The position numbers and the translations under genes were made by a program. A stretch of DNA of 64,000 nt, taken from the NCBI GenBank assembly GCA_023255625.1, contig JAHFLF010000001.1:290965-354964 (forward strand), written 5' to 3'. Shown one piece after another: positions 20,347 through 45,675 of the stretch; the first letter of the stretch is position 1, and each line of letters opens with the position of its first letter. Source of the DNA: Candidatus Harrisonbacteria bacterium (GTDB lineage Bacteria; Patescibacteriota; Minisyncoccia; UBA6257; 1-14-0-10-44-23). Under the pieces are notes generated by a model. It had not been told where the DNA came from and did no database searches. It saw nothing but the letters and a program-made list of their open reading frames with translations.

Positions 20347-20613
20347 ATGATCGGATATGTTTACATATTGCGAGCTGCCGATGACCGCTTGTATGTCGGC
20401 AGCACCAGCAATTTAGAATATCGTATGCGCCAACACATAGCTGGTCATACGCAAACAACTCGCAATATGAAAAAATTTGCGCTTGTTTTTAAGCAAGAGA
20501 CGGCTAATTTGAAAATAGCCCGTGCTGCTGAACGAAAGCTCAAAAAACTAAAACGCAAGGATTACCTAGAAAAAATCATCAAAGACGGCTATATTAAGAT
20601 ATTACCCCCATAG
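20347..20613 (+). CDS. GIY-YIG nuclease superfamily protein (YhbQ/UPF0213-like)
   Basis: GYVYILRAADDRLYVGSTSNLEYRMRQH carries the GIY...YIG motif. The 3' end overlaps tRNA-Arg. Confidence 0.65.
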   Translation: MIGYVYILRAADDRLYVGSTSNLEYRMRQHIAGHTQTTRNMKKFALVFKQETANLKIARAAERKLKKLKRKDYLEKIIKDGYIKILPP

Positions 20614-20674
20614 TTCAATGGATAGAACAAAACTCTTCTAAGGTTTTGATGTAGGTTCGATTCCTACTGGGGGT
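20604..20674 (+). tRNA. tRNA-Arg (anticodon TCT)
   Basis: ACCCCCA acceptor, anticodon loop CTTCTAA, T-arm GTAGG-TTCGATT-CCTAC. Confidence 0.7.
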
Positions 20675-20694
20675 ACAAAATGATAAGATTGGGT

Positions 20695-20758
20695 AGTTCA
20701 ACTCCGACGCTCACAGTAGTGAGGTCGGAGCCCCGACCTACTGCGTCTGGGTGGATAA
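20695..20758. repeat. about 64-bp direct repeat, copy 2
   Basis: See 20272-20335. Confidence 0.8.
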
Positions 20759-20808
20759 GACAAGGGGTTTCTAACCCCTCAATCTAGGTTCGATTCCTAG
20801 CGGGGACA
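20757..20808 (+). other. tRNA-like 3' fragment (anticodon-arm-like AGGGG-TTTCTAA-CCCCT, T-arm CTAGG-TTCGATT-CCTAG, CGGGGAC-A-CCA) with no adjacent 5' half
   Basis: Canonical T-loop and encoded CCA. The only candidate 5' acceptor strand (GTCCTCG) lies at 20274-20280, immediately before repeat copy 1. Confidence 0.4.
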
Positions 20809-20868
20809 CCATGGATAGTTAATCGGTTAGTCAGTTAGTTGGTTAGTTGGTAAAACGAAAAACTAATT

Positions 20869-26932: not shown

Positions 26933-27275
26933 GACAATAAATGATTGGAATAAGTGAGAAGCGCAGATTTTGATGCAGTTCTAGGCGCGGGAGGGCGGTT
27001 TGTGAGCCGTACTTTTATATAAGTACGGTGAGCAAACCGACGGGACCCGCAACAACGAACTGCTCAAAATATGCATTTCTCACACACAATAACTCTGTAG
27101 TTGCCCCAAATTACGATTCCGGTTCTTGCGATTCCTCCGAAGGAGGATCCGCCTATGGCGGAAAAGTGTCGTGACTTAGAGCTCCACGACCAACACTCTT
27201 TTTCTATCAATCCAGTATATAAATATACTGAAGTGTCGCTTTTTCCTAATCTCCATTTACAGAGAAAGAAAAAAG

Positions 27276-29180
<1,905 letters not shown>

Positions 29181-29630
29181 TAATAAGTAATTTGAAATTC
29201 ATCTAGCCGAAGCCAGATGAATAACAAACACTCTTGTTTTGGGACAACTACACAATTATTGTTGCATACTTTATATCTGCTTGAAGGATATAAAGATTTT
29301 GATTTCCTAATCATTCATTTATCTTTATAGTTTTTAGTATCTTTCGATACAAACATTTTCAAAGAACGAAAGGTATACTCAATTCACTTTTTGAAGTGAA
29401 AATAATACACCCGTCTCGGCGACCTATCGTATGATCTGCAATACGACGACGAGACGGATGCGCTGGTCTGATATATGTTTTTCCGCCAGAGGCGGATCCG
29501 CCTTCGGCGGACAATTTGTACGAATTTCGCGGGATGTTTCGCTGGTTCGTTTGTACTGCCTTAAGCCAGTACTAATGTGGCTTCTAGTATAGTCGACCGA
29601 ATAATAAAGTCAAGACCTTATTAACGAAGC

Positions 29631-31021: not shown

Positions 31022-33331
31022 GTGTCATTTGAAAGACCATCGGAAAAGCCGCAGAGCGCCGAAAGAAGCGAAGGTGCAATTGAAAGGACGCGGCTTTTAG
31101 CGCAGCTGCAAGAGTTAAAAGCTCAACTACTAGCAAACGGAGGTCCTGCCCTAGTGGCCAAAGCCGCCGCTTTCATGGCTGGAGAAGTGACTGCGGCAAA
31201 ATTCTGCCGACGAAGCGAATTACTGCCTCAAGAAGAAGAGCTCCGTAGCACAGCAATTAATGCGCTCGTGCGAGAAGACATTATTAGCGGAGATCAAAAC
31301 CCTGATACCGGCGAGTTCGTGTTCGTCATTGACCCAACAAAAATCAATGGTATCAGCCGCGATAAGTTGCTGAAATACGTTGGTGGGATCGGATATGATG
31401 GCTCCGGCAATCAACTGAAAAAATCCGAAATAATTGCACGCATATTCCGCGACATCCAATCAATCACTCCGGGGCAGCAGGAAGAAGGAGACCTCAATCC
31501 CAAACCATTCCTATATATTCCAAAAAACGCAAAGGACGCGCTTGACCCGGCCAAAATCAAAAAAGCAGAATTTCAAACGACGCTCTGGGACATTGCCGGA
31601 AATAAAGAAGATGGTAATGAGGAATACCCTGTTGCCGATGGTCCGGGGGCCAATGCGCTTGAGACTCGTCTCGCGACGATTATCTTCCATCCGTCATACG
31701 GTGATGGATATCGCGATAAAAGCGGCGTTCTTCTGGTTCGTGATCCGGCCACGCGTGAGTACAAAAAATTCTCTACCGGCACCTTGAGTGACTACAATAT
31801 CAGCGGAACTCGACTTAGTGTTCGCGGCGGCAAGGTTGTACGCAGCAGTCGCCAAGGCCTTGCAGAGATGGCTCCCAGTCTCATCCGGAACGGCGCTCTG
31901 CGTAAAGAAGATTTAATGGCTATTAGAGGTACAAAAACCGGCGTCTATGACAGACGCCCCTCAAAACGAGGTATTAAAAAGTTAGTCATGTTTAACGGGG
32001 TGCGACACTATGTCGGCCCGCATGCCGAGGGTGCGGCGGCCGTACTATTAAGCCCGACAACCGCCGGCATTATAGAAAAAGATGCCTCCGGCAAAGAAAT
32101 GCTGACGCGAGTCTTCAATGCCTTTGATTCAAGCCAATTTGAATTGAAACAAAAGGAAAAGTTCCATGATTCAGGAGTTGATGAAACAAAACCCCGCCCG
32201 TTTGACCTTGCAGAATTTAGCGGCCCTAAAAAAGATGGCGAGTCAGAAGAGCTGTATGCAAATCGCCGCGCAGTCGTAGACTATGTTGAATTCATGAAAA
32301 TAAAAGATGATCTTGCGAAAATAGGTATTCCGGTTGATTCCGGCAATATTGAAACCGAAACCAACCTTGCCCGCGCTGTGCGTATCCTGTCGCAGACAAA
32401 TCGCTATGAAATATTTCTTGCCTTTGCAAAGAAAACGGGCGAATCCGGTATAGCTGCCATCATAACCGCCGGAGATGACGCTCCGTATGTTGAAGCAATC
32501 CTGAAAATTGGCGAGAAATTATCGGCCGATAAGGCACGCGAATTTTTTGAAGAAACCGACCAAGAGAAAATCTTAGAATCTCTTCATGAAAACTCCGGCG
32601 ACAAAACAATCGTAGCACTTCGAGAAAACATTAGGCGTACAAACAGAGAGCTATTCATCCGTTGTGCGGCGAGCGAAACAGCGATCAAAAACCCGCGCGA
32701 AACTAAAAAGATACTCGACCGCGCGAAAGCGGAGATTCGGCTGTTTGAAAATATGCTCCGAATCATTGAAGAAACTGAACAGCTACCGTCAGAATATCTC
32801 CGCGGAACTGAAATGGCGATTACTGAAACCGGCGAACTCTCCGACCTGGATCTTGCGAACATGCTTAAGCAATTTGAGGAGACTCGGAAAAATGACCTGG
32901 ATGAAAAGGGGAAGCCGATTTACGATGCTGAACATCTTGAGGGCCTCGTACAAGATTTCAAACAAAAACTAGAAAATCCCAAAGCGCGATTTTATACTGT
33001 TCGCCAAGGTGGCGCCATCATTGCCTTTGTTCGCTTTGAAGACCTACCGAACGATCATGTCTACGCCGGATCATTCACGACAAGCAAAGATTTGCGCGGC
33101 GAAAAGCTCGGCTCCGCGCTCATGCGAACTGCGTTTGCACAAGAAAACGCCGACAGAACCCTAGAGGCAATTGTTTTTTCCGGAAATCCACGGCTGATGG
33201 AATACCATACTCAAAAGCTCGGCCACGAAATCCATTATGACCAGCCACTCAAAATCGGCGGTGCGTTGTATTACCGGATGACTCGCGAGCCGCGCAAGCA
33301 AGCTACGGTTTCGCTTGGGGCGGCCGCATAG
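31022..33331 (+). CDS. large hypothetical protein (769 aa) with a C-terminal GNAT-like acetyltransferase fold
   Basis: The C-terminal IIAFVRFEDL...RGEKLGSALMRTAF resembles GNAT motif A. About 650 N-terminal residues are unrecognised. Start uncertain (GTG at 31022). Confidence 0.5.
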   Translation: MSFERPSEKPQSAERSEGAIERTRLLAQLQELKAQLLANGGPALVAKAAAFMAGEVTAAKFCRRSELLPQEEELRSTAINALVREDIISGDQNPDTGEFVFVIDPTKINGISRDKLLKYVGGIGYDGSGNQLKKSEIIARIFRDIQSITPGQQEEGDLNPKPFLYIPKNAKDALDPAKIKKAEFQTTLWDIAGNKEDGNEEYPVADGPGANALETRLATIIFHPSYGDGYRDKSGVLLVRDPATREYKKFSTGTLSDYNISGTRLSVRGGKVVRSSRQGLAEMAPSLIRNGALRKEDLMAIRGTKTGVYDRRPSKRGIKKLVMFNGVRHYVGPHAEGAAAVLLSPTTAGIIEKDASGKEMLTRVFNAFDSSQFELKQKEKFHDSGVDETKPRPFDLAEFSGPKKDGESEELYANRRAVVDYVEFMKIKDDLAKIGIPVDSGNIETETNLARAVRILSQTNRYEIFLAFAKKTGESGIAAIITAGDDAPYVEAILKIGEKLSADKAREFFEETDQEKILESLHENSGDKTIVALRENIRRTNRELFIRCAASETAIKNPRETKKILDRAKAEIRLFENMLRIIEETEQLPSEYLRGTEMAITETGELSDLDLANMLKQFEETRKNDLDEKGKPIYDAEHLEGLVQDFKQKLENPKARFYTVRQGGAIIAFVRFEDLPNDHVYAGSFTTSKDLRGEKLGSALMRTAFAQENADRTLEAIVFSGNPRLMEYHTQKLGHEIHYDQPLKIGGALYYRMTREPRKQATVSLGAAA

Positions 33332-34100
33332 ACAAATCAGCAGCCACAAACGGTTGCGCCTTTTCCCATTGCGCCTCAAACAGTGTTCGGTGCATCTGGC
33401 TAATGTATGGATCATCAATAATCACGCCGATGCGGCCGCGCTCATTAAAGCTCAAAAAACTCACTTTATTTTCATAAATTTGTACGATACTGCTAAACGG
33501 AACTTGCGGCGGCGGAATGAGGCGGATAGAGACAATCTGTTTGCTTAATTTTTCTTGGAGCGAACGAATATATTTTGTGTCCGGGCCGATAATCCGTTTG
33601 TGGATGCCGCGTTTTACGCGCTCATTAATATACCGCGCATTTTCTGCCGGTAGATACTTGTCCATAACCTCGTGATCAAGATAGGTTAAGACCTCCCCAC
33701 CTGAAACAAGCGTATCATCAGCCAAAATCCTGATTGCGCTATCGCCCTCGTAATACTGCACACCCGGCTTACCGGAAATCAAATTAAAATCTGATGTTAA
33801 GTTGGCGATAATGCCGCCGAGCGCCTCTTGCGCGACTTTGGCCGATTGCTCTTTCTGCTCCGCAAGCTCTTTCAGCCGAAGCGGATGCGTCGGCTCAAAG
33901 CGCAATACTTTTGCCTTTGTATTTTTTGCGACTAACCCGAGCGCAACGAGCTCATCGAGCACCTTGTAAGTGAGCCCGCGCTTGAGTCCTGATTTTTCGC
34001 TGATTTCACCAGCGGCAAGCGCGCCGTGCTTAAGCAACACCTCGTAAATTTTGGCCTGATCAGCGCTCAATCCGGCTTTAGATAAAGTTTGTTCGTACAT
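33303..34100 (-). CDS. TrmB-family transcriptional regulator (paralog 3)
   Basis: wHTH (QAKIYEVLLKHGALAAGEISEKSGLKRGLTYKVLDEL) and TrmB C-domain. Confidence 0.6.
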   Translation of the reverse strand: MYEQTLSKAGLSADQAKIYEVLLKHGALAAGEISEKSGLKRGLTYKVLDELVALGLVAKNTKAKVLRFEPTHPLRLKELAEQKEQSAKVAQEALGGIIANLTSDFNLISGKPGVQYYEGDSAIRILADDTLVSGGEVLTYLDHEVMDKYLPAENARYINERVKRGIHKRIIGPDTKYIRSLQEKLSKQIVSIRLIPPPQVPFSSIVQIYENKVSFLSFNERGRIGVIIDDPYISQMHRTLFEAQWEKAQPFVAADLSMRPPQAKP

Positions 34101-34113
34101 CGGGCAGTAGAAA

Positions 34114-34386
34114 TTATTTTTGAATGCTTTTTAAAAATTCCATCGTAGCATTCACGGCGGCGTTATCGGTTGGCAGCAATACTAAGCGCTCGCCAAGCTG
34201 TTTATATAATGGCGTGAAAAATTCATCCGCCCATGATGGGGTAAATGTAAAAATTCCGCTAAAATCTATTTCAAGAATCTCTGTTTCCGCTACATTTCGC
34301 AGGTCGGCCTGAAAGGCCTTAAAGGCTTCGCTACCGGATTGGCGCGAGATTAGTGTCGTTCCAAATTTTTTTAGTTCAATACGCAT
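34114..34386 (-). CDS. small STAS-like (DUF4325-type) protein
   Basis: 90 aa. The MRIELKKFG...EILEIDFSGI pattern is typical of STAS-like partners of GHKL ATPases. Confidence 0.4.
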   Translation of the reverse strand: MRIELKKFGTTLISRQSGSEAFKAFQADLRNVAETEILEIDFSGIFTFTPSWADEFFTPLYKQLGERLVLLPTDNAAVNATMEFLKSIQK

Positions 34387-34411
34387 AGAAATTGTTATTG
34401 TTTATCATAAA

Positions 34412-35131
34412 CTAATACATAATTACTGCAAAACACCCTCTGATAGTTTCTGCGCCTCGTGTGAATCGTAGCTCTCCCTTTTCTGTGTCTACGCGCACTT
34501 CGGCATCGCCATTCTTGAAATAGAGATTAATTTTATTTTCCAAAATAACTTTGCGGACAAATTTTAATCCGTTGCCGCGCGCCTCCGGCGCGCGCCCGGA
34601 AACGACTTCTGTAAATGCGACCTGCACGGCCTCCAGATGGCTGGCCAGTTGCGGCCGCACTTGGCGCAGTGTAGCGAGAATCCCCACGCCTCGGTCCGCC
34701 AAAACAATTCGTCTTTTGGCAAGATCATATCCGAAAAAAATGCCGGCAGTATCAGGCCATTTACCCAGGTTATGCGCAAACGAATTGTCGCCAATCTCAC
34801 TCGCGGCTGCTGTTATGAGAAATCCCAACTTTTCCAGGCCATCTGTAGCAGCGAGAAAAGTTTCCAGCTTGCTGATTCTTCCTTGGAACACGGAGCTATT
34901 GGCGCAATAAAACTGACTAGAAAGGTCACCGCCGTCTTTTGCCCATTCATAAGCAGTTTTCTGTATATCGCCGGCGAAAAGGTTCAGATCCGCCTGGTGA
35001 TAATAACGATGAGTGCCTCCTTCTTTGCGGATAGCTAACAGTTTTCCGGATTTGTCCCACCGGCGCAAAGTATCAATAGACACGCCTAAAAATTCCGCCG
35101 CTTCAGCAATATTTAGTAAGTTTTCTTCCAT
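34412..35131 (-). CDS. MerR-type HTH fused to a GHKL (histidine-kinase-like) ATPase domain
   Basis: N-terminal LLNIAEAAEFLGVSIDTLRRWDKSGKL (MerR/excisionase HTH). C-terminal EIGDNSFAHN (N-box) and LADRGVGI (G1-box). ATG at 35131. Confidence 0.55.
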   Translation of the reverse strand: MEENLLNIAEAAEFLGVSIDTLRRWDKSGKLLAIRKEGGTHRYYHQADLNLFAGDIQKTAYEWAKDGGDLSSQFYCANSSVFQGRISKLETFLAATDGLEKLGFLITAAASEIGDNSFAHNLGKWPDTAGIFFGYDLAKRRIVLADRGVGILATLRQVRPQLASHLEAVQVAFTEVVSGRAPEARGNGLKFVRKVILENKINLYFKNGDAEVRVDTEKGELRFTRGAETIRGCFAVIMY

Positions 35132-35213
35132 ACCTACAAAGCATAGCATCTTAGAATAAACTATGCAAATAATTAGCAAAACTATGCAAAGTATATAAAA
35201 CTATGCATTTAAA

Positions 35214-35259
35214 ATACTCCCTTTCATAAAGGGAGTACGGCAGGGCCGGGAGGGATTTT
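35214..35259. repeat. REP/MITE-like element copy (CTCCCTTTCATAAAGGGAGTA-CGGCAGGGCCGGG-AGGGATTTT)
   Basis: Same family as 16985-17100. Confidence 0.7.
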
Positions 35260-35913
35260 GATTGATTAATTTTATCAATATTTTCACAGAAATATGACAT
35301 TTTGGGGCATATCTAGGAAGTCCTAAAAAGCTAGTATTCATAAGGATTTTAGCCCATTTTAGGATTATATTTTGCCACATGTACTTGACAGATTTGTCAA
35401 ATGGTGCTATAGTGTCTTTGTAAGATGACAAATGGAAGGAGAGCGGCGCTAGGCCGGATCCGCGCCAAATGAAGTCTTACAAAGCCGCAGCACCAGAGAT
35501 TGCACGGCAATCACGGTGCAGGGCAGGCATTTGAAATAGAAAGCGTTAGTCGAATATCGCTAGATGTATGGTTTCCACCCCTGATCCGGACACTCAACGG
35601 ACGGTATCTGCGCCGGTAAGGCAGAAAAGAGGAGGGAGTGGTCACTGAAAAGCAAACATCTAATTGTATTCTGTTGCCCTTAGCGACCTGGGAAGTCGAG
35701 CTGGAGAGCTCGACCGAAGGGTAAATAGGCAACACAACGGCTACATATCACTTAATTCATAGAGGAGAGAGTGATAAGGAGATCCGCTGGACACAAGAAC
35801 CTAAACCCGTCTTGCGTCCAGAAATCTCTTTTTGGCGTAGAGCCAGATCGAGCGAACCTTGAAAACTAAACCCAGCACTAACTTTTGCCTAACCCAGCAC
35901 TAACTTAAATAAG

Positions 35914-36168
35914 TTAATGCTGGGTCAAGCTTTGCCGCAAACGGAGTTTTAACTTCGCCAGCGCCCAGCCATGGTACTTAAGTTGCTTCTCGCGCTCTCG
36001 AGCGTCAGCTTCAACGCGATAGGCCTCGTAGTATATCAGTTCCCACTTATGCCCTCGCGTAGAAAAAACCTTGCCGTTGTTATGTGCGGCAAAGCGAACT
36101 CGCAAATCGTTTGTACTTCCAGTGTACAACTCATTGAGTTCATTACGAATTACATAAACATAATGCAT
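35914..36168 (-). CDS. GIY-YIG nuclease superfamily protein (YhbQ-like), second copy
   Basis: MHYVYVIRNELNELYTGSTNDLRVRFAAHN carries the GIY-YIG motif. Flanked by inverted ACCCAGCACTAACTT copies. Confidence 0.65.
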   Translation of the reverse strand: MHYVYVIRNELNELYTGSTNDLRVRFAAHNNGKVFSTRGHKWELIYYEAYRVEADAREREKQLKYHGWALAKLKLRLRQSLTQH

Positions 36169-36300
36169 GCAGTGATTCTATCACTGCATGCAGGCAAAAG
36201 TTAGTGCTGGGTAAATAGAAACGAATTGTGAGTAGGCGATACTCGGGGATTATATACCGGAGTGCCTATCAGCAACGTTCGCGGATTCCTGTGATTGAAT

Positions 36301-36447
36301 GATTCTCCCTTTCCTAAAGGGAGTACTCCGACGTTACGTCGGAGGGAGGGATTTAAGTCCTCCAAAAAACCAATTGATTCGCAGACCCGGCTTTTCTTAT
36401 TCTCCCTTTCCTAAAGGGAGTACCGCCACTAGGCGGGGAGGGATTTT
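36301..36447. repeat. two tandem REP/MITE-like elements (36301-36355 and 36396-36447) at the left border of the largest GC-rich island
   Basis: GATTCTCCCTTTCCTAAAGGGAGTA-CTCCGACGTTACGTCGGAG-GGAGGGATTT and CTTATTCTCCCTTTCCTAAAGGGAGTA-CCGCCACTAGGCGG-GGAGGGATTTT. The central hairpins differ but keep their pairing. Confidence 0.8.
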
Positions 36448-36594
36448 CTCTCTTCTGCAAAAGCCGGATAAGCGAGTCCGTTGATCGCGCACAAGGTGTG
36501 CGCGGAAGCGAACTCAACTCGTGCATCTTAATGGTAGAGATGCAGCAGAGTAGGATTTTCCCCCTAGGCGAAAAGGGGAAAGGAGAAATATACC

Positions 36595-37326
36595 ATGCGT
36601 CGTAATCCAGAAAGTTGCGTTGCGCGCGCCCTGCGCGCGCAGGGCGACCTCGCGAAGCGCGAGGCGGCCCAGAAGGCCGCGGCGGCTCGTGCCGCCGCGG
36701 AAGCTCGGCGGAGCGCCCTGCTCCGCGAGCACTCCGTCCTCGCCAGTTGGCGGGGCGGGTTCGAGGAGGCGGCACGCCGCTTCCTCCTGTGCGCCGCCAA
36801 AGGCGGCGCATTCCACGCGGACGCCGCCGCCTGGCTCGCCGGTCTCTCCGAGGGAGTGGTGGTCTCGGGCTGGGATGTCCAGCGCGCTGCCACTTTGATG
36901 GTGGCCGAGACCGAGGCGCTGGAAGCCGTCGGTAGCATCCGCCGCGTGCCGCGTACGCCGGCAGAGCTCGATGCTCTGCTGACCGCGGCTTGGCCGGTCG
37001 CGGTCGCCCGGGACGGGCGGACCGAAGGATACAACGGCCCGGCCAACGGTTTCGACCGTTGGAACGGGCAGTTGACGCCGCCCGAGGGGAAATCCTACCT
37101 CGGTGGCGAGGTCGCCGACGCCGGCTTCGTCTGGAACGCGGGTGGGCGTTCCACCCCCGGACTCCGTCCGCTCGCGGACGGTCGGTGGGAAGTGTTGGTC
37201 GCCGTCCCGCGGTGGTACCTGGAGGGGGACTCGACGGCGCTCAACGCCGTCGGGGGCTACTGCTCCATGGGCGCGCCGCTCCCGCGGTCCCAGTGGGACT
37301 GGCGCTGCGAGCCCCTGCGCTCGTAG
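36595..37326 (+). CDS. hypothetical Ala/Arg-rich protein (243 aa), island gene 1
   Basis: AAAGGAGAAATATACC before the ATG. Overlapping alternative-frame ORFs are probably GC artefacts. Confidence 0.5.
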   Translation: MRRNPESCVARALRAQGDLAKREAAQKAAAARAAAEARRSALLREHSVLASWRGGFEEAARRFLLCAAKGGAFHADAAAWLAGLSEGVVVSGWDVQRAATLMVAETEALEAVGSIRRVPRTPAELDALLTAAWPVAVARDGRTEGYNGPANGFDRWNGQLTPPEGKSYLGGEVADAGFVWNAGGRSTPGLRPLADGRWEVLVAVPRWYLEGDSTALNAVGGYCSMGAPLPRSQWDWRCEPLRS

Positions 37327-37723
37327 TCGCCACCCCTCACCCGTTTTGAAGCAACGGGAACGATGAGGTAACGCTTCAAGAGAGGAGGTGAGTCGTAAGG
37401 GGTCTTTTCATCCTGGTTTTCGCCATCAAGCAAAACCAAGGAGTTTTCGGGAATCAGTCCCGACGAGTATCAGCTTCTGAGCGGCTGATACTTTAGAATG
37501 GTTAGCTCTTCGCGCTGGTGGGGGAGGTCAGACTCGTTCTGATCTCTCCCCACCGCAAATTTTATGAATTCGTATCAGGATTTTTCTGGATTCCCGCTTT
37601 CGCGGGAATGACAGACAGAAAATTGATATGAGTTCGTAAGGTACGGGCTCAAGAATCACTACCACGCGTTGCTGTCATGGGCAGCGCGTTGGTTTCGCCC
37701 TGACGGGCAATTGGAGGTTTACC

Positions 37724-38212
37724 ATGACCGAGCCGACATACACAGGGGAAGCGATGAGCTTTCGGAAGCGGCTGCCGGAGCCGCTGGCTGGGTTGGTCCG
37801 AGACCTCTCGGACCAACGGACACGGTTCGCCGCGTTCCAGTTCTCCGGGTGGCTGATCGGCGCCTTGGAGGCGGTGTCCCCCCGGAAGTTGGTTCCGGGG
37901 CCGGAGTACATCAAGGACGAAAAGGTCAACGCCAGGCGGGAGCTGGCGTTGTCGGCGGCACGGAGTGCACACGAACTTCTCGAGTGGTACCAAGACATGG
38001 GCTGCAGGGGGCGCCTGTGGGTATCTCGTCTTCTCCCCACGCGCGCCGAGTATGGGAACATCTCTGCCTCCCTGAGGGACGGCATGGAATTCCTCCGTCA
38101 GGAGGATGTCGTCGTTGCGCTCAATCGCGCGATGGAAGAGGCGAAGAATGCCTCGGATCAGGAGGTTGACCTCCCTGCGCGCAAGAAGGAGAGATTCGCT
38201 CGGCCGAGCTGA
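37724..38212 (+). CDS. hypothetical protein (162 aa), island gene 2
   Basis: TGGAGGTTTACC before the ATG. Confidence 0.5.
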   Translation: MTEPTYTGEAMSFRKRLPEPLAGLVRDLSDQRTRFAAFQFSGWLIGALEAVSPRKLVPGPEYIKDEKVNARRELALSAARSAHELLEWYQDMGCRGRLWVSRLLPTRAEYGNISASLRDGMEFLRQEDVVVALNRAMEEAKNASDQEVDLPARKKERFARPS

Positions 38213-38544
38213 CCGAGCGGCGTAAAAATACCAGAATGGCTCTCTGGCAGTGAGTTAAAATCCAGTAGCTCATGCGAATGTAATCCGCTCATCGGATACT
38301 GGTTCAGCGTGCGAACAAGACTCGCGCACGCTGGAAAGGGTTTCAGGAGTCAGCCTTGGTGAGGGGTCGGCAGCGATGTCGGCCCCTCCCAGAAAAACTG
38401 CGTATTCGCGGGTGGAAGTTTCAAACGGAAATTTTTACGCGCGAGTCCGTTGTAACCGGATTCGAAAAGAGAAAACCGCTATCGCATCCTTCGTGGTAGG
38501 AGGTGCGATGAGCTTCGTCCTTCGGGACAAAAGGAGTGACTACC

Positions 38545-38865
38545 ATGAGTCTAAGGGGAGACGACAGCTATCTCGGACCATTCCACCGTCAGCGCACCCC
38601 GGCCGAGGCGGCGGCTGACGCGCCGCATGAGCTCCTCCGGAAGCAGGAGCTTGACGCCGCCGAAAGGATGTACCGCGCGGCGACTGCGGCCGAGTCGCCG
38701 CGGAAATCCAGGAGTGTCGTAGATCTCCTGGATCAGGGCTGCGCGGCGACTGCGGCGGAGAGGGAGTACCTCGCCGCCCGACATCGGGCCGAGAGACGCT
38801 TCGGCAACCGGAACATCCCGGGGGCTGACGGAGGGCCGGGTGGTGGCCAAACGCCCGACGCGTAG
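38545..38865 (+). CDS. hypothetical protein (106 aa), island gene 3
   Basis: AAAAGGAGTGACTACC before the ATG at 38545. Confidence 0.5.
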   Translation: MSLRGDDSYLGPFHRQRTPAEAAADAPHELLRKQELDAAERMYRAATAAESPRKSRSVVDLLDQGCAATAAEREYLAARHRAERRFGNRNIPGADGGPGGGQTPDA

Positions 38866-39156
38866 CCGGGCAGGTCAGCCGAAAACGCCGGGTTAGCCAC
38901 CGGCGTAAATATTCCCAGAGTGGCGCTCTGGGCTGGATGACAAAATACACCCTGTCATCCTGTGGGTTTCTCCGGCGCTGTTAAACGCCGGTGATAAGGG
39001 TAGCGCGTGGCGGAGGAGTGGGAAGACCCCACCCTCCGCCGCACAAAATTCAAACAAAGATTTTTGCGATGGACATTTACATTATGCGTTCCTGGGGACG
39101 CTTGGTCTATCGCAGAAACCTCTGCTTGAAAGACAGCTGGGGAGAAAGAGTGGTTT

Positions 39157-39375
39157 ATGGAGCTGTGGGAGGTCAGTGTCACAGTCCTGTCACCAAGGAG
39201 GGGGACTGTGAAGGCAGAGGTGAAGTCTTCCGAGGCAGAAGTTCTAGATCTTTGCAGAAATTACCCTGCAAGGTATTTAGGACTTAAAATTTCCGTGGCG
39301 AAGATGGAGTCAGAAGGGGTTCAGTGTACTGACCCGCTCTTCTGCGTCATCGACATATCCCCGGGAGGTGATTAA
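39157..39375 (+). CDS. hypothetical small protein (72 aa), island gene 4
   Basis: GGGGAGAAAGAGTGGTTT before the ATG. Confidence 0.4.
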   Translation: MELWEVSVTVLSPRRGTVKAEVKSSEAEVLDLCRNYPARYLGLKISVAKMESEGVQCTDPLFCVIDISPGGD

Positions 39376-39386
39376 TCCGCGTCCTG

Positions 39387-39770
39387 ATGATCACGGGACG
39401 GTTCGCTGGTCAGGTGCGGGAGATCCCGCCGACCACCGACCCGATGGAGCTCTTCGGCTTCTGCGCCCGGGAAAACTGGGCGTGGGAGGTGGAGTGGGCT
39501 TCGGCAACGAGCACACAGGAGAAGTTCGTCTGGGGGCGTGCTGACATGGTCGGCCGTTGCCTGCGAGCGCTCCTGCATGGCCGGCCGGTTTTCCTCAGCG
39601 GTAAGAGATATGCCGCCAAAGGAACCGATGCGGCTGGCGTAGTTGCCGGACAGCTCGAAGACGCCATCGTTAATTCCGGCACCAACGTTCGCGTTGGCTC
39701 AGATGACGAGGATGGCGTCGTCATTGAGCTCTGCTCGGACGAAGAGCCCGGCAGTTCTGCGCGCAACTGA
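39387..39770 (+). CDS. hypothetical protein (127 aa), island gene 5
   Basis: GGGAGGTGA upstream. Acidic C-terminus. Confidence 0.4.
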   Translation: MITGRFAGQVREIPPTTDPMELFGFCARENWAWEVEWASATSTQEKFVWGRADMVGRCLRALLHGRPVFLSGKRYAAKGTDAAGVVAGQLEDAIVNSGTNVRVGSDDEDGVVIELCSDEEPGSSARN

Positions 39771-39849
39771 CAAAGCGCGCTATCTCAAAACCTCTGCTTG
39801 AAACACAACGGAGGAGAAAGGTTAGCCGTTGCGGAACCGGAGGGCTAAG

Positions 39850-40137
39850 ATGGAGCGGCTACGAAAAGTAGCCGCAAAACTGTGTCTGAGAGTTCGACTC
39901 TCAGAACAGTATTGTGTCAGCTACGACACAATCATGCGGTTCGACAGGGTAGTTCACGCGGAAGGCGTGAGATTTATCCTGGCGTTTCCAGGGAGCGTAG
40001 TTGCGGTCTTCTTCAGCAGTAAGACGCTTTGGTCAATTGTTGAAGAAGCTGGCGCCCTTTTGGCGGTATACGATAGCGTTGACACTATCAACCGCCTTCT
40101 TAAGGAAGAGGAGGAAGAGGAGGAATTGGAGGGATGA
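39850..40137 (+). CDS. hypothetical protein with poly-Glu tail, island gene 6
   Basis: CCGGAGGGCTAAG before the ATG at 39850. Ends with EEEEEEELEG. Confidence 0.4.
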   Translation: MERLRKVAAKLCLRVRLSEQYCVSYDTIMRFDRVVHAEGVRFILAFPGSVVAVFFSSKTLWSIVEEAGALLAVYDSVDTINRLLKEEEEEEELEG

Positions 40138-40387
40138 GATAGTCGTCCCTTCCAAACAATTAGCGTTTTCCGGGCGGTGCGCACACAACGCGCCGCCCGG
40201 AGAGAATTAAAATTTACCCGATAACGGGCTGGAAGTGAGTATCGTGGGCTCCGCGTAGAGGTCGTGAGTTTGAAAAGCCGGGCGAGGCGTTTAGCCGAGC
40301 CCGGATAAATCTCTCTCCTCTAAGCGACCTCTGCGCGGATTTTGCGCGACTTGCTTCCGGCCCAGTGTCGGGTATTTTGACGGAAAT

Positions 40388-40439: not shown

Positions 40440-41540
40440 TTAAATTTTAATATACCGAGTTCCTCGCCCTTGTCCAATTCTCTCCAGAAGTTTCAACTTC
40501 ACCAGACGAGTCAATGCTTGCTTAACAGTTTCTCTCTGAATTGTACCGGAAAGTCGCTCGACAACCTCCGCTACACCCATTTCTTGACCCGGCGAGAAAA
40601 GTTGATACACTGCTTTTTGTTTTCCAGAGAGAAGTTTTTCTGGTTGGTCCGCGTCCATAATCTTTCGCGCTCGCGCACACTGCTCTATAAGCGCGGTAAG
40701 AAAATAATCAATCCATGACGAGATGTCTTCGTTTTCTGTGCCGTGATTTTTTTGGGTTGCACGAAGCGCGAGGTAATAATCTACTTTGGTCTGCTCAATA
40801 ATTTCATCAAGCGAGACATATGGAACATAACTATATCCAGCTTGAAGAAGCAGGAAATGAGTAAGTGCTCTACTGACTCGACCGTTGCCATCCGCGAATG
40901 GGTGAATAGCTAGGAATTCAAAGATAAAATTTGCAATCACGAGCAGCGGATGAATCGTGCGGTCTTTAAGTCGCTCGTTGGTCCATTCTATGGCTGTGAG
41001 CATTTCTCCTTTAACGAGATATGAATGAGTAGGATTAAAAAGCACTACATTTTCTTTTTGTTCGTTTGTCAGGACGACTGCGTTATCGCCGTCTTTGTAT
41101 TTACCTTTGTGAAATTTATCTTTCGCAGAAAATTGGAGGAGGATACTATGAAACTGTTGTATCCAACCTTCGGTTAACTTCATTGTTCTCCAGCTATCAA
41201 AAATCCGCCCAATGAGATCGGCGTAACCCGCTACCTCTTCTTGGTCTCGTCCTTTCGGTACATTTACTTTGAGCCCGCGCAAAAAGCGGGCAATTTCTTC
41301 GTCGGTCATTTTTGCACCCTCAATACGCGTCGAAGCGCCGGTCGAGGTGATAATCACAAACGATTTAAGACGCCCGAGTATTTGCGGACTAAGACGCTGG
41401 CTGCCTTGCCAGAGACCTTGAAATTGATCTATTTTTGCGATTCTAGCGAGAATATCTTGAGACAAAGGTATTCTTTTTTCAAAACGCTGCGTATTATTGA
41501 TATTTCTGTTGTTTTTCATAATGTATTGACTATATACCAA
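40440..41540 (-). CDS. Fic/DOC family protein (AMPylator-like) with C-terminal wHTH
   Basis: Canonical Fic motif HPFADGNGRVSRAL. Confidence 0.8.
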   Translation of the reverse strand: MVYSQYIMKNNRNINNTQRFEKRIPLSQDILARIAKIDQFQGLWQGSQRLSPQILGRLKSFVIITSTGASTRIEGAKMTDEEIARFLRGLKVNVPKGRDQEEVAGYADLIGRIFDSWRTMKLTEGWIQQFHSILLQFSAKDKFHKGKYKDGDNAVVLTNEQKENVVLFNPTHSYLVKGEMLTAIEWTNERLKDRTIHPLLVIANFIFEFLAIHPFADGNGRVSRALTHFLLLQAGYSYVPYVSLDEIIEQTKVDYYLALRATQKNHGTENEDISSWIDYFLTALIEQCARARKIMDADQPEKLLSGKQKAVYQLFSPGQEMGVAEVVERLSGTIQRETVKQALTRLVKLKLLERIGQGRGTRYIKI

Positions 41541-45317: not shown

Positions 45318-45675
45318 CTGGTGCCGCGGGTCAGAATCGAACTGACAACCACTTCCTCTTCCAAGGATATTCTCTGCATTACTGCAAAGTTTGGACTATA
45401 TCATCTCCCCAGAGGGGAGTCGGGCGCTATCTGCGAGGTTATTGTTGGGACTCACTCGCTAGTCTCTACACCTGCCTCCGCTAAAGCTACTGCAGGCAAG
45501 CCTTCTTCAACGATTTGGCTTGCTTGCAATCCGTAGCCTCCCGGCGAAGGATTGGCTCGGGATTTTCCTCTCACAAGGAGTTCCCCCGAATTCACCCAAT
45601 TATTCAATCCATATTACTATGGAAGGCCCCAAAGAGTTATCAATAGGGAAATGCTCTACCATTGAGCTACCGCGG
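45318..45675 (-). tRNA. tRNA-Phe (anticodon GAA) interrupted by a 283-nt group I intron between U33 and G34 (exons 45644-45675 and 45318-45360)
   Basis: Exon 1 GCCGCGGTAGCTCAATGGTAGAGCATTTCCCT. Exon 2 GAAGAGGAAGTGGTTGTCAGTTCGATTCTGACCCGCGGCACCA. Intron carries group I R-like (TAGAGACTAG) and S-like (GATATAGTCC) elements, a GGGG internal guide, and ends in G. Confidence 0.7.
45361..45643 (-). mobile_element. group I intron within the tRNA-Phe anticodon loop, with no homing-endonuclease ORF
   Basis: See the tRNA-Phe entry. The 5' exon ends in U and the 3' exon follows a G. Confidence 0.6.

Follow-up and report, generated by a model that had tools for sequence, protein, structure and literature searches.

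A helix-turn-helix-GHKL protein and its STAS-like partner as a predicted auto-repressed signalling module of Patescibacteria

The closest described relatives of the gene pair reported here are CapK and CapS. CapK has the domain order HTH-STAS-GHKL (HTH, helix-turn-helix) and CapS the order STAS-winged HTH (wHTH); single-stranded DNA (ssDNA) activates CapK, CapS becomes phosphorylated on Ser54, and the CapS dimer is broken and leaves its palindromic operators, de-repressing adjacent immune operons (Chambers et al., EMBO J 2026, PMC13373217). In Proteobacteria and related groups CapKS precedes immune operons; the CapK HTH is dispensable, its deletion having had no effect, and VapK phosphorylates VapS to free the VapC toxin (PMC13373217). 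BldC, a stand-alone domain of 68 amino acids (aa), binds contiguous ~9-bp AT-rich direct repeats head-to-tail (Schumacher et al. 2018, PMC5859096). Here we describe a two-gene locus in a 64,000-nt stretch of a Candidatus Harrisonbacteria genome (contig JAHFLF010000001.1, positions 290,965 to 354,964; hereafter the window), in which gene A encodes an HTH fused to a GHKL domain and gene B a small STAS-like protein. Patescibacteria, also called the Candidate Phyla Radiation (CPR), account for much of bacterial diversity and are mostly uncultured; their genomes are tiny, with few recognisable regulators, and to our knowledge almost nothing is known about their gene regulation.

The A-B pair and its protein domains

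B lies 3′ of A with a gap of 25 nt, both on the minus strand (Table 1). Both open reading frames (ORFs) are real genes, with 4171 homologue clusters for A (E <= 1e-3) and 976 for B at ~60-66% identity. The top 120 clusters of A were all ~239 aa long, 60-66% identical and carried Patescibacteria/CPR names only, and the clusters of B showed the same pattern. The coordinates in the original prediction, which was made from the sequence, were correct, but the product of A has 239 aa and not 240. A TTG start at 35179 in the ORF listing was rejected, as the extension would span the operator and promoter described below and the homologues begin with MEE; the N-terminus MEE(K/N)LL is kept among them.

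The fusion in A of a DNA-binding domain to a GHKL domain was confirmed on the HTH side by matches above curated Pfam cut-offs, MerR (PF00376) scoring 43.2 bits against 28.2 and HTH_17 scoring 41.5 against 27 over aa 5-52; PF13411 scored 35.1 against 21.6, and the MerR_1 threshold was also passed. The best sequence matches among solved structures were BldC (6AMA/6AMK, E ~4e-5), and the best NCBIfam model was HTH_BldC (NF033787), at 30.5 bits below its cut-off of 77. The HTH is kept in thousands of homologues. Its recognition helix reads S18-x-D20-TLRRWD26, with the family form S-x-[D/N/Q]-T-L-R-R-W-D and D20 as the predicted specificity residue. Features of MerR regulators beyond the HTH were absent from A: no C-terminal coiled coil or effector domain was found, the GHKL domain following the HTH instead, and the operator consists of direct repeats with a promoter spacer of 16-18 nt rather than a palindrome in a 19-20-bp spacer.

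The C-terminal 180 residues of A generated no match in Pfam (none at E <= 1), NCBIfam or PADLOC, the PADLOC match on A (mad1) being to the HTH alone, and searches of the PDB with one sequence and two profiles returned HTH proteins only. Divergent relatives gave only sub-threshold matches to HATPase_c_2/HATPase_c (E 0.002-0.02). The GHKL motifs E112/N116, D146xGxG150 and G186xG188, which include the N box and the G1 box originally noted, were nevertheless invariant in 31 close and 60 diverse homologues. An AlphaFold (AF2) model of full-length A from a shallow alignment of ~60% identical sequences had a predicted local distance difference test (pLDDT) score of 53.9 and was discarded, whereas aa 60-239 modelled with a 60-sequence diverse alignment reached a pLDDT of 94.8 and a predicted TM-score (pTM) of 0.90. 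This model is an alpha/beta sandwich of the Bergerat fold, and its structural neighbours were SpoIIAB (1l0o_A; 122 residues, 2.4 Å; score 12.4), RsbW (9.8), mycobacterial UsfX/RsbW (9.7), the RsbW domain of Rv1364c (9.7) and SiaB (9.2). The domain had been called RsbW-like, and although sequence models miss it, its fold is indeed closest to the anti-sigma serine kinases. An hhalign comparison with CapK (CapK and CapS sequences were taken from the source data of PMC13373217) gave moderate support, with a probability of 77%, E 2e-5 and 27% identity over 109 columns (N box to G2 box). Computationally, there is strong support for assigning the C-terminal domain of A to the ATP-binding GHKL domains of the SpoIIAB/RsbW/CapK type, and all its catalytic motifs are intact.

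B passed the cut-off of the Pfam family DUF4325 (PF14213; 27.3 bits against 23, E 2.9e-6), a label already carried by many of its homologues, so that its description as a STAS-like, DUF4325-type neighbour of 90 aa was upheld. The two best PDB sequence matches of a B profile, both weak (E 0.2 and 0.7), were 9Z71 and 9Z7O, which are CapS and VapS. In hhalign, B aligned without gaps to the STAS domain of CapS (probability 79%, E 1.6e-5), placing Ser51 of B on Ser54 of CapS. Ser51 is invariant in 27 B homologues and likewise in the partners of divergent kinases. By homology, A would bind B and phosphorylate it on Ser51.

A B homologue was found directly 3′ of A on the same strand in 88 of 89 loci, the lone exception lying at a contig end, with a median gap of ~14 nt; that A and B form an obligate pair is strongly supported computationally. 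Relatives of A are encoded at at least 571 loci on one-genome-per-species GTDB contigs of Patescibacteria, including Parcubacteria-type lineages, Microgenomates (Woese-, Levy- and Roizmanbacteria), Peregrini-, Berkel-, Doudna-, Kerfeld-, Uhr-, Magasanik- and Jacksonbacteria, and metagenome-assembled genomes (MAGs) labelled Saccharibacteria, with ~46-66% identity across CPR classes. Some genomes carry two modules. Those of CAYZMA01 (L012 and L063) lie 5 kb apart on the same contig and share a specificity class, which suggests a recent duplication.

The surroundings of the pair were surveyed over at most the two nearest called ORFs per side, with Pfam on both sides and PADLOC on the downstream side. 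A conserved third gene was rejected, the commonest Pfam family accounting for 4 of 139 downstream and 3 of 130 upstream ORFs. The neighbours mix housekeeping genes (ribosomal proteins, serine hydroxymethyltransferase (SHMT), DnaB, RpoC) with accessory ones, namely restriction-modification (R-M), toxin-antitoxin (TA), Fic/SoFic, AbiE and PIF1/RecD-like helicase genes, and HicA and GmrSD genes are also among them. No sigma-factor or PP2C phosphatase family recurred among the 269 neighbouring genes (~80 loci), no PIN (VapC) family was among the recurrent genes 3′ of B, and the heterogeneous downstream genes did not form an immune operon. In the window, the gene after B encodes a TrmB-family HTH protein; it starts 13 nt past the end of B with no terminator detected between them, and is probably a co-transcribed output of the A-B operon in this genome. 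TrmB is not a recurrent neighbour overall, and the genes 3′ of B vary between loci. TrmB-family HTH genes also adjoin the kinase-STAS pair around L093, one of the wHTH-GHKL relatives described below.

Operator, specificity residue and candidate targets

Three direct repeats precede A in the window, the distal ATGCATAGTTTTA, the middle TTGCATAGTTTTG and the proximal TTGCATAGTTTAT. A position weight matrix (PWM) refined on 81 non-identical upstream regions gave the consensus (T/A)TG(C/T)(A/G)TAG(A/T)TT(T). At least two sites were present in 73 of these regions and at least three in 44, in arrays of two to four direct repeats, against a background rate of 0.008 per 120 nt; an opposite-strand site occurred in only three. 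Adjacent sites were 20-21 bp apart in 94 of 122 pairs, 10 bp apart in eight and 41 bp apart in five. In the fetched flanks of the 89 loci, every site cluster was located at the promoter of A.

The repeats overlap the promoter itself. In 58 of 78 loci the TTGxxx of a repeat also serves as -35 hexamer and is followed at a distance of 16-18 nt by a -10-like hexamer, and in 32 of those 58 the -10 hexamer lies 6-9 nt before the ATG, which implies a leaderless or near-leaderless mRNA. Other lineages have a canonical TTGACA-17-TATAAT promoter, and their sites abut the -35 hexamer, fall in the spacer or the -10 hexamer, or extend through the 5′ untranslated region to the ATG. As the sites coincide with core promoter elements in every layout, A is predicted to repress the A-B transcript, and thereby itself.

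Covariation between A and the operator bases was computed across 73 loci. D20 was accompanied by CA at operator bases 3-4 in 37 of 39 loci (95 of 102 sites), N20 by NG in all 15 loci (42 of 42 sites), Q20 by TA in all 13 loci (34 of 36 sites) and M20 by TA in three of three loci. Residue 20 and the operator bases shared 1.46 bits of mutual information, where 1.65 bits would be the maximum; the second-ranked of the 239 alignment columns reached 0.69. By parsimony on a tree of the C-terminal domain alone, both characters switched ~18-20 times, so the association does not reflect one inherited event. Given this covariation, it is very probable that the repeats are read directly and base-specifically by A through its own HTH; as judged from sequence, binding of this HTH to phased direct repeats at its own promoter is strongly supported computationally. 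If this readout is correct, A-D20N would favour TG(N)GTAGATT, and A-D20Q TGTATAGATT, over the TGCATAG type. The MAG DeMMO2_29 (JAGVFQ01) carries two copies of different classes, N20/NG (L029) and D20/CA (L039), which suggests insulated paralogues.

DnaA-box-like words (TGTGGATAA/TTATCCACA and near variants) were observed ~60-110 nt before A, just upstream of the operator, at several loci of the Q20/TA class (L064, L082, L059 and L067), and in L155 in the interval that separates the array from rpoB.

The GHKL module of A belongs to a wider clade. An exhaustive profile search yielded 3171 representatives, 110 of them below 1e-30, with the signature GEIGNNSFDHNLGxW...ADRGxG...SGRxPExRGNGLKFV. Besides the form in A, the module stands alone (~190-200 aa), is fused to MarR/ArsR-like winged HTHs (~252-271 aa), follows an N-terminal STAS-like stretch (P0390) and is once fused to a cytidylyltransferase. 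In a search seeded with a stand-alone member, three architectures were intermixed at ~40% identity, nearly all from Patescibacteria apart from a few MAGs that carry the labels Saganbacteria or Deltaproteobacteria. Each of the four kinase variants that were placed on contigs (with a wHTH, a STAS or no N-terminal domain) is followed by a gene for 92-101 aa; Pfam assigned DUF4325 to three of these, and the fourth (L093), for which no Pfam match was recorded, encodes a product that aligns with B. Two wHTH-GHKL relatives (L092:1280-1440 and L093:2840-3000) have palindromes on their own -35/-10 elements, e.g. GTTGACAGTTGAC/TGTCAACTGTCAAC, and not direct repeats, so that each type of DNA-binding domain attached to this kinase is accompanied by an autoregulatory site that suits it. 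The constant core is the GHKL clade with DUF4325, and the kinase has gained a DNA-binding domain more than once.

Targets beyond the operon were sought in this genome and in others. The three operator repeats are the only strong sites in the window, the few weaker single sites being intragenic or in a convergent gap, and over ~525 kb of flanks of the loci, words of each locus's own operator were not enriched (51 observed, 69.6 +/- 8.9 expected). Metagenome contigs were scanned for two TGCATAG(A/T)TT words 20-21 bp apart, which gave at least 120 loci. Among the 120 loci listed, 69 have an A homologue directly downstream, six are too near a contig end and 45 lack A. Many of these 45 are tandem repeats of another kind or fortuitous matches in other organisms, and several have clear phased arrays with a -10 element before other genes (Table 1); arrays without an obvious target gene were found in L134 and L149. 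In some genomes at least, A therefore probably acts on targets in trans. The genes behind the arrays are candidate regulon members, above all the DNA methyltransferases of R-M systems, and extra STAS substrates may be under the control of A in trans.

Proposed mechanism, alternative explanations and other features of the window

We consider it probable that A-B works as a self-contained signalling unit that represses its own transcription, and that it varies the CapK/CapS type in that the DNA-binding domain is carried by the kinase. The winged HTH of A would occupy two to four repeats phased by two helical turns, with residue 20 reading bases 3-4, and A bound at the core promoter would exclude RNA polymerase, repressing the leaderless A-B transcript. 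The GHKL domain would bind ATP and B and phosphorylate Ser51, as SpoIIAB does on SpoIIAA and CapK on CapS. Whether B is bound, or phosphorylated and released, would set the oligomeric state of A (its multimerisation on the repeats) or its affinity for DNA, and a cell signal acting on the kinase, such as the ATP/ADP ratio as in RsbW or a nucleic-acid ligand as in CapK, would lead to de-repression. Since no phosphatase is linked to the pair, freshly made, unphosphorylated B would reset the switch with no phosphatase required. The outputs would be the operon itself with co-transcribed genes, here the TrmB-family gene, and in some genomes unlinked promoters with the same arrays.

Several points weigh against this mechanism. 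Foldseek places Hsp90 and GyrB ATPases first among the matches to the C-terminal model, though with poor TM-scores, and kinase activity of A, as opposed to mere binding or hydrolysis of ATP, is a prediction. Only the positions of the sites point to repression rather than activation, and no second target was found in the window and ~525 kb of locus flanks. The ssDNA-sensing site of CapK, at the STAS-GHKL interface, is formed by a STAS domain that A does not have, and the repeats of A are 20-21 bp apart, whereas those of BldC are contiguous at ~9 bp.

In a broader version, which we put forward tentatively and regard as doubtful, A-B would be a core regulator of Patescibacteria that is of ancient origin and was inherited for the most part vertically. 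Phosphorylation of the STAS protein would gate promoter occupancy by the kinase, and a small regulon would in this way respond to a global cue, either energy charge or damage to nucleic acids. Such a regulon would include the module's own genes and, in a genome-dependent manner, R-M methylases, radC, rpoB and additional STAS paralogues, and the one-residue code (D/N/Q20 for CA/NG/TA) would let paralogues coexist without cross-talk.

An alternative that we consider unlikely is a controller of defence or stress, or a TA-like module comparable to CapKS and VapKSC, which would sense DNA damage or phage and control variable defence genes such as R-M and TA systems. The original prediction had likewise hinted at defence islands. 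Profile-level homology to CapK/CapS and VapS, which belong to immune regulators, is in keeping with this, as are the R-M, Fic/SoFic, AbiE, HicA and GmrSD genes near some pairs, the A-type arrays before hsdM, an EcoRI-type methylase and mazE-radC on metagenome contigs, and the tight autoregulated two-gene operon typical of TA systems. However, no effector or toxin is conserved beside the pair and many neighbours are housekeeping genes, so that the neighbourhoods lend the hint weak support. With ~46-66% identity between CPR classes and a presence in at least 571 species genomes, A resembles a core gene, and it lacks the ssDNA-binding STAS domain of CapK. The A profile matched 2.9 million viral contigs through the HTH alone, and the C-terminal domain had no tblastn match in phage-genome or plasmid collections; carriage of the module by phages or plasmids was rejected on this absence.

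Less likely still is classical partner switching, in which A would be the anti-sigma factor for a sigma factor encoded elsewhere and B the anti-anti-sigma factor, the HTH serving only autoregulation. The best structural matches (SpoIIAB, RsbW and UsfX) and a STAS-type partner with a conserved serine fit this scheme, and a sigma-70 gene lies ~6 kb upstream at one locus. Against it, the surroundings of the pair show no conserved sigma-factor or PP2C gene, A has no match to Pfam HATPase_c_2 at E <= 1, and B is a DUF4325 protein, not a canonical STAS. The repeated fusion of this GHKL clade to DNA-binding domains (MerR-type and wHTH) with an operator at their own promoter argues that the partner is DNA rather than a sigma factor. 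The original prediction named as its refutation an ordinary pair of anti-sigma and anti-anti-sigma factors whose HTH had been mis-called, which is not what the locus presents.

We regard as improbable that the GHKL domain is an ATP-driven dimerising ATPase, a clamp like those of MORC, MutL or GyrB, that bridges or compacts HTH-bound DNA with B as a regulator that is not phosphorylated. An excisionase or recombination-directionality factor of a mobile element, with the repeats as arm-type sites, is hardly credible: the HTH_17/excisionase-type domain scores just under the TIGR01764 cut-off, Xis proteins bind direct repeats and the genomic contexts vary, but no integrase or recombinase family recurs among ~270 neighbouring genes, the repeats coincide with the gene's own promoter, the HTH belongs to a protein that has a conserved GHKL domain and a STAS partner, and the family is absent from viral and plasmid collections.

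Table 1. Coordinates of the A-B module, of A-type arrays on metagenome contigs (by locus) and of other features of the window
Feature	Position	Strand	Basis or remark
Gene A, HTH-GHKL protein, 239 aa	34412-35131 (stop codon included), ATG at 35131	-	ORF, sequence, homologues
Gene B, STAS-like (DUF4325), 90 aa, predicted substrate/antagonist of A	34114-34386	-	ORF, Pfam
MerR/BldC/excisionase-type winged HTH of A, aa 5-52	34976-35119	-	Pfam MerR and HTH_17; BldC PDB match
C-terminal module of A, aa 60-239: conserved extension (W63, F74-x-C76), then GHKL/Bergerat fold	34415-34954	-	
N box, E112-I-G-D-N116-S-F-A-H-N121	34769-34798	-	E112, N116, H120 and N121 invariant (60 diverse homologues)
G1 box, D146-R-G-V-G150	34682-34696	-	D146, G148 and G150 invariant; codons verified in sequence
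G2-like box, R185-G-N-G-L-K190	34562-34579	-	R185, G186, G188, L189 and K190 invariant; aligns with CapK ARGLGLK
Ser51 codon of B (motif T/S-P-S51-W-x-D-E), predicted phospho-acceptor	34234-34236	-	Invariance and CapS alignment
Operator repeat 1 (distal)	35196-35208	-	PWM 17.4; 19 bp from repeat 2
Operator repeat 2	35177-35189	-	PWM 18.6; 21 bp from repeat 3
Operator repeat 3 (proximal)	35156-35168	-	PWM 16.0; contains the -35 hexamer
-35 hexamer TTGCAT, within repeat 3	35163-35168	-	17-nt spacer to TATGCT
Predicted -10 hexamer TATGCT	35140-35145	-	8 nt before ATG; sequence, position predicted
TrmB-family HTH gene	33303-34100	-	Pfam TrmB E 1.3e-12; context only, not a conserved part of the module
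A-type array, solo B (DUF4325) gene directly behind	L097:7999-8300, L112:6968-7290		
A-type array, B gene ~190 nt downstream behind a short A remnant	L163:1111-1600		
A-type array before an A without HTH	L144		
A-type array, 5 sites, before type I R-M hsdM	L113		
A-type array, 3 sites, before EcoRI-type adenine methylase	L190		Pfam E 5e-122
A-type array, 3 sites, before a mazE-like gene, then radC	L167		
A-type array, 4 sites, rpoB 256 nt downstream	L155, L185		
A-type array before a 211-aa protein	L182		
Copies of CTCCCTTT-N3-AAAGGGAG	16989, 17076, 17932, 21150, 35216, 36304, 36401		
Near-consensus sigma-70 promoter	35385-35413	+	TTGACA-17-TATAGT with upstream TG
GIY-YIG gene	35914-36168		
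GC-rich stretch	~36300-40300		
Fic-domain gene	40440-41540		
16S rRNA gene	27274-29184	-	
Group I intron	45372-45644	-	
tRNA-Arg(TCT) genes	20604-20676, 20745-20811	+	70 nt apart

The REP-like (repetitive extragenic palindromic) repeat that had been noted just upstream of A is a real hairpin (35216-35236) but not part of the module, being a repeat that occurs across the window and is missing from homologous loci. The 21-nt palindrome CTCCCTTT-N3-AAAGGGAG has seven copies in the window, where 0.01 would be expected, and is a REP-like or terminator-like hairpin family in the intergenic DNA of this genome. Beyond the hairpin, a near-consensus sigma-70 promoter points away from A in the ORF-poor spacer at 35.2-35.9 kb, with no gene or known RNA downstream of it.

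Between the GIY-YIG and Fic-domain genes lies a ~4-kb stretch that is GC-rich (~0.59 against ~0.47) and holds no long conserved ORFs; its ORFs had no Pfam match, and Rfam gave no match in it even at E <= 0.1. Foreign DNA, an assembly chimera and an unknown RNA are candidates for its origin. The 16S rRNA gene is 1911 nt long, which corresponds to an insertion of ~380 nt typical of CPR, and a group I intron is located 16 kb from it; Rfam reported no 23S rRNA in the window. Of the two tRNA-Arg(TCT) genes, the second is short and scores poorly in Rfam (32.8 bits), and may be a degenerate copy.

Comparison with known systems

PMC13373217 mentions neither CPR nor DUF4325, and neither the motifs of the A-B family nor CPR names were found in its supplements. 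Pfam does not assign CapS to DUF4325 or CapK to HATPase_c, so A/B and CapK/CapS are related but distinct families. Both consist of an autoregulated two-gene operon with the kinase gene before the STAS gene, a GHKL domain resembling anti-sigma kinases behind an N-terminal HTH, and an absolutely conserved serine of the STAS protein at the same aligned position. In contrast, CapK is a 368-aa protein with an internal STAS domain, whereas A, with 239 aa and a linker or extension of ~25 aa, has no room for one, and the HTH of A is of another type (MerR/BldC). The wHTH of CapS binds palindromes as a dimer, while B has no DNA-binding domain and it is the kinase that is predicted to read direct repeats. 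Furthermore, no particular neighbouring gene goes with A/B, whose occurrence is essentially limited to Patescibacteria.

With VapK/VapS, the pair shares a GHKL kinase and a small STAS-only protein with a conserved Ser/Thr, and among the relatives of A there are STAS-GHKL proteins (P0390) whose gene likewise precedes a DUF4325 gene. However, B is not followed by a VapC/PIN gene and does not have the inhibitory C-terminal helix of VapS, and A has an HTH where VapK has its STAS domain. The kinases of the SpoIIAB-SpoIIAA, RsbW-RsbV and SiaB-SiaC pairs are the closest structural neighbours of the C-terminal model of A. Unlike these pairs, A/B has no sigma-factor or PP2C partner, A has a DNA-binding domain and is too divergent for Pfam HATPase_c_2, and B belongs to DUF4325 and not to canonical STAS or DUF1987. 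The HTH of A resembles BldC in having no MerR coiled coil and in its predicted operators, direct repeats of variable number (two to four), but it is fused to 180 further residues and its operator motif differs.

As the defining architectural features of CapKS and VapKSC are absent, A/B is not a strict member of either; it is homologous to them and probably similar in its working. A kinase that is itself the DNA-binding component would extend the CapK/CapS principle of a GHKL kinase, a STAS protein and transcription control, and the HTH of A may suggest a role for the so far unexplained HTH of CapK. Taken together, the analysis yields a widespread, well conserved regulator with a DNA motif, an operator phasing and a predicted specificity residue, which lends itself to tests with purified proteins that need no culture.

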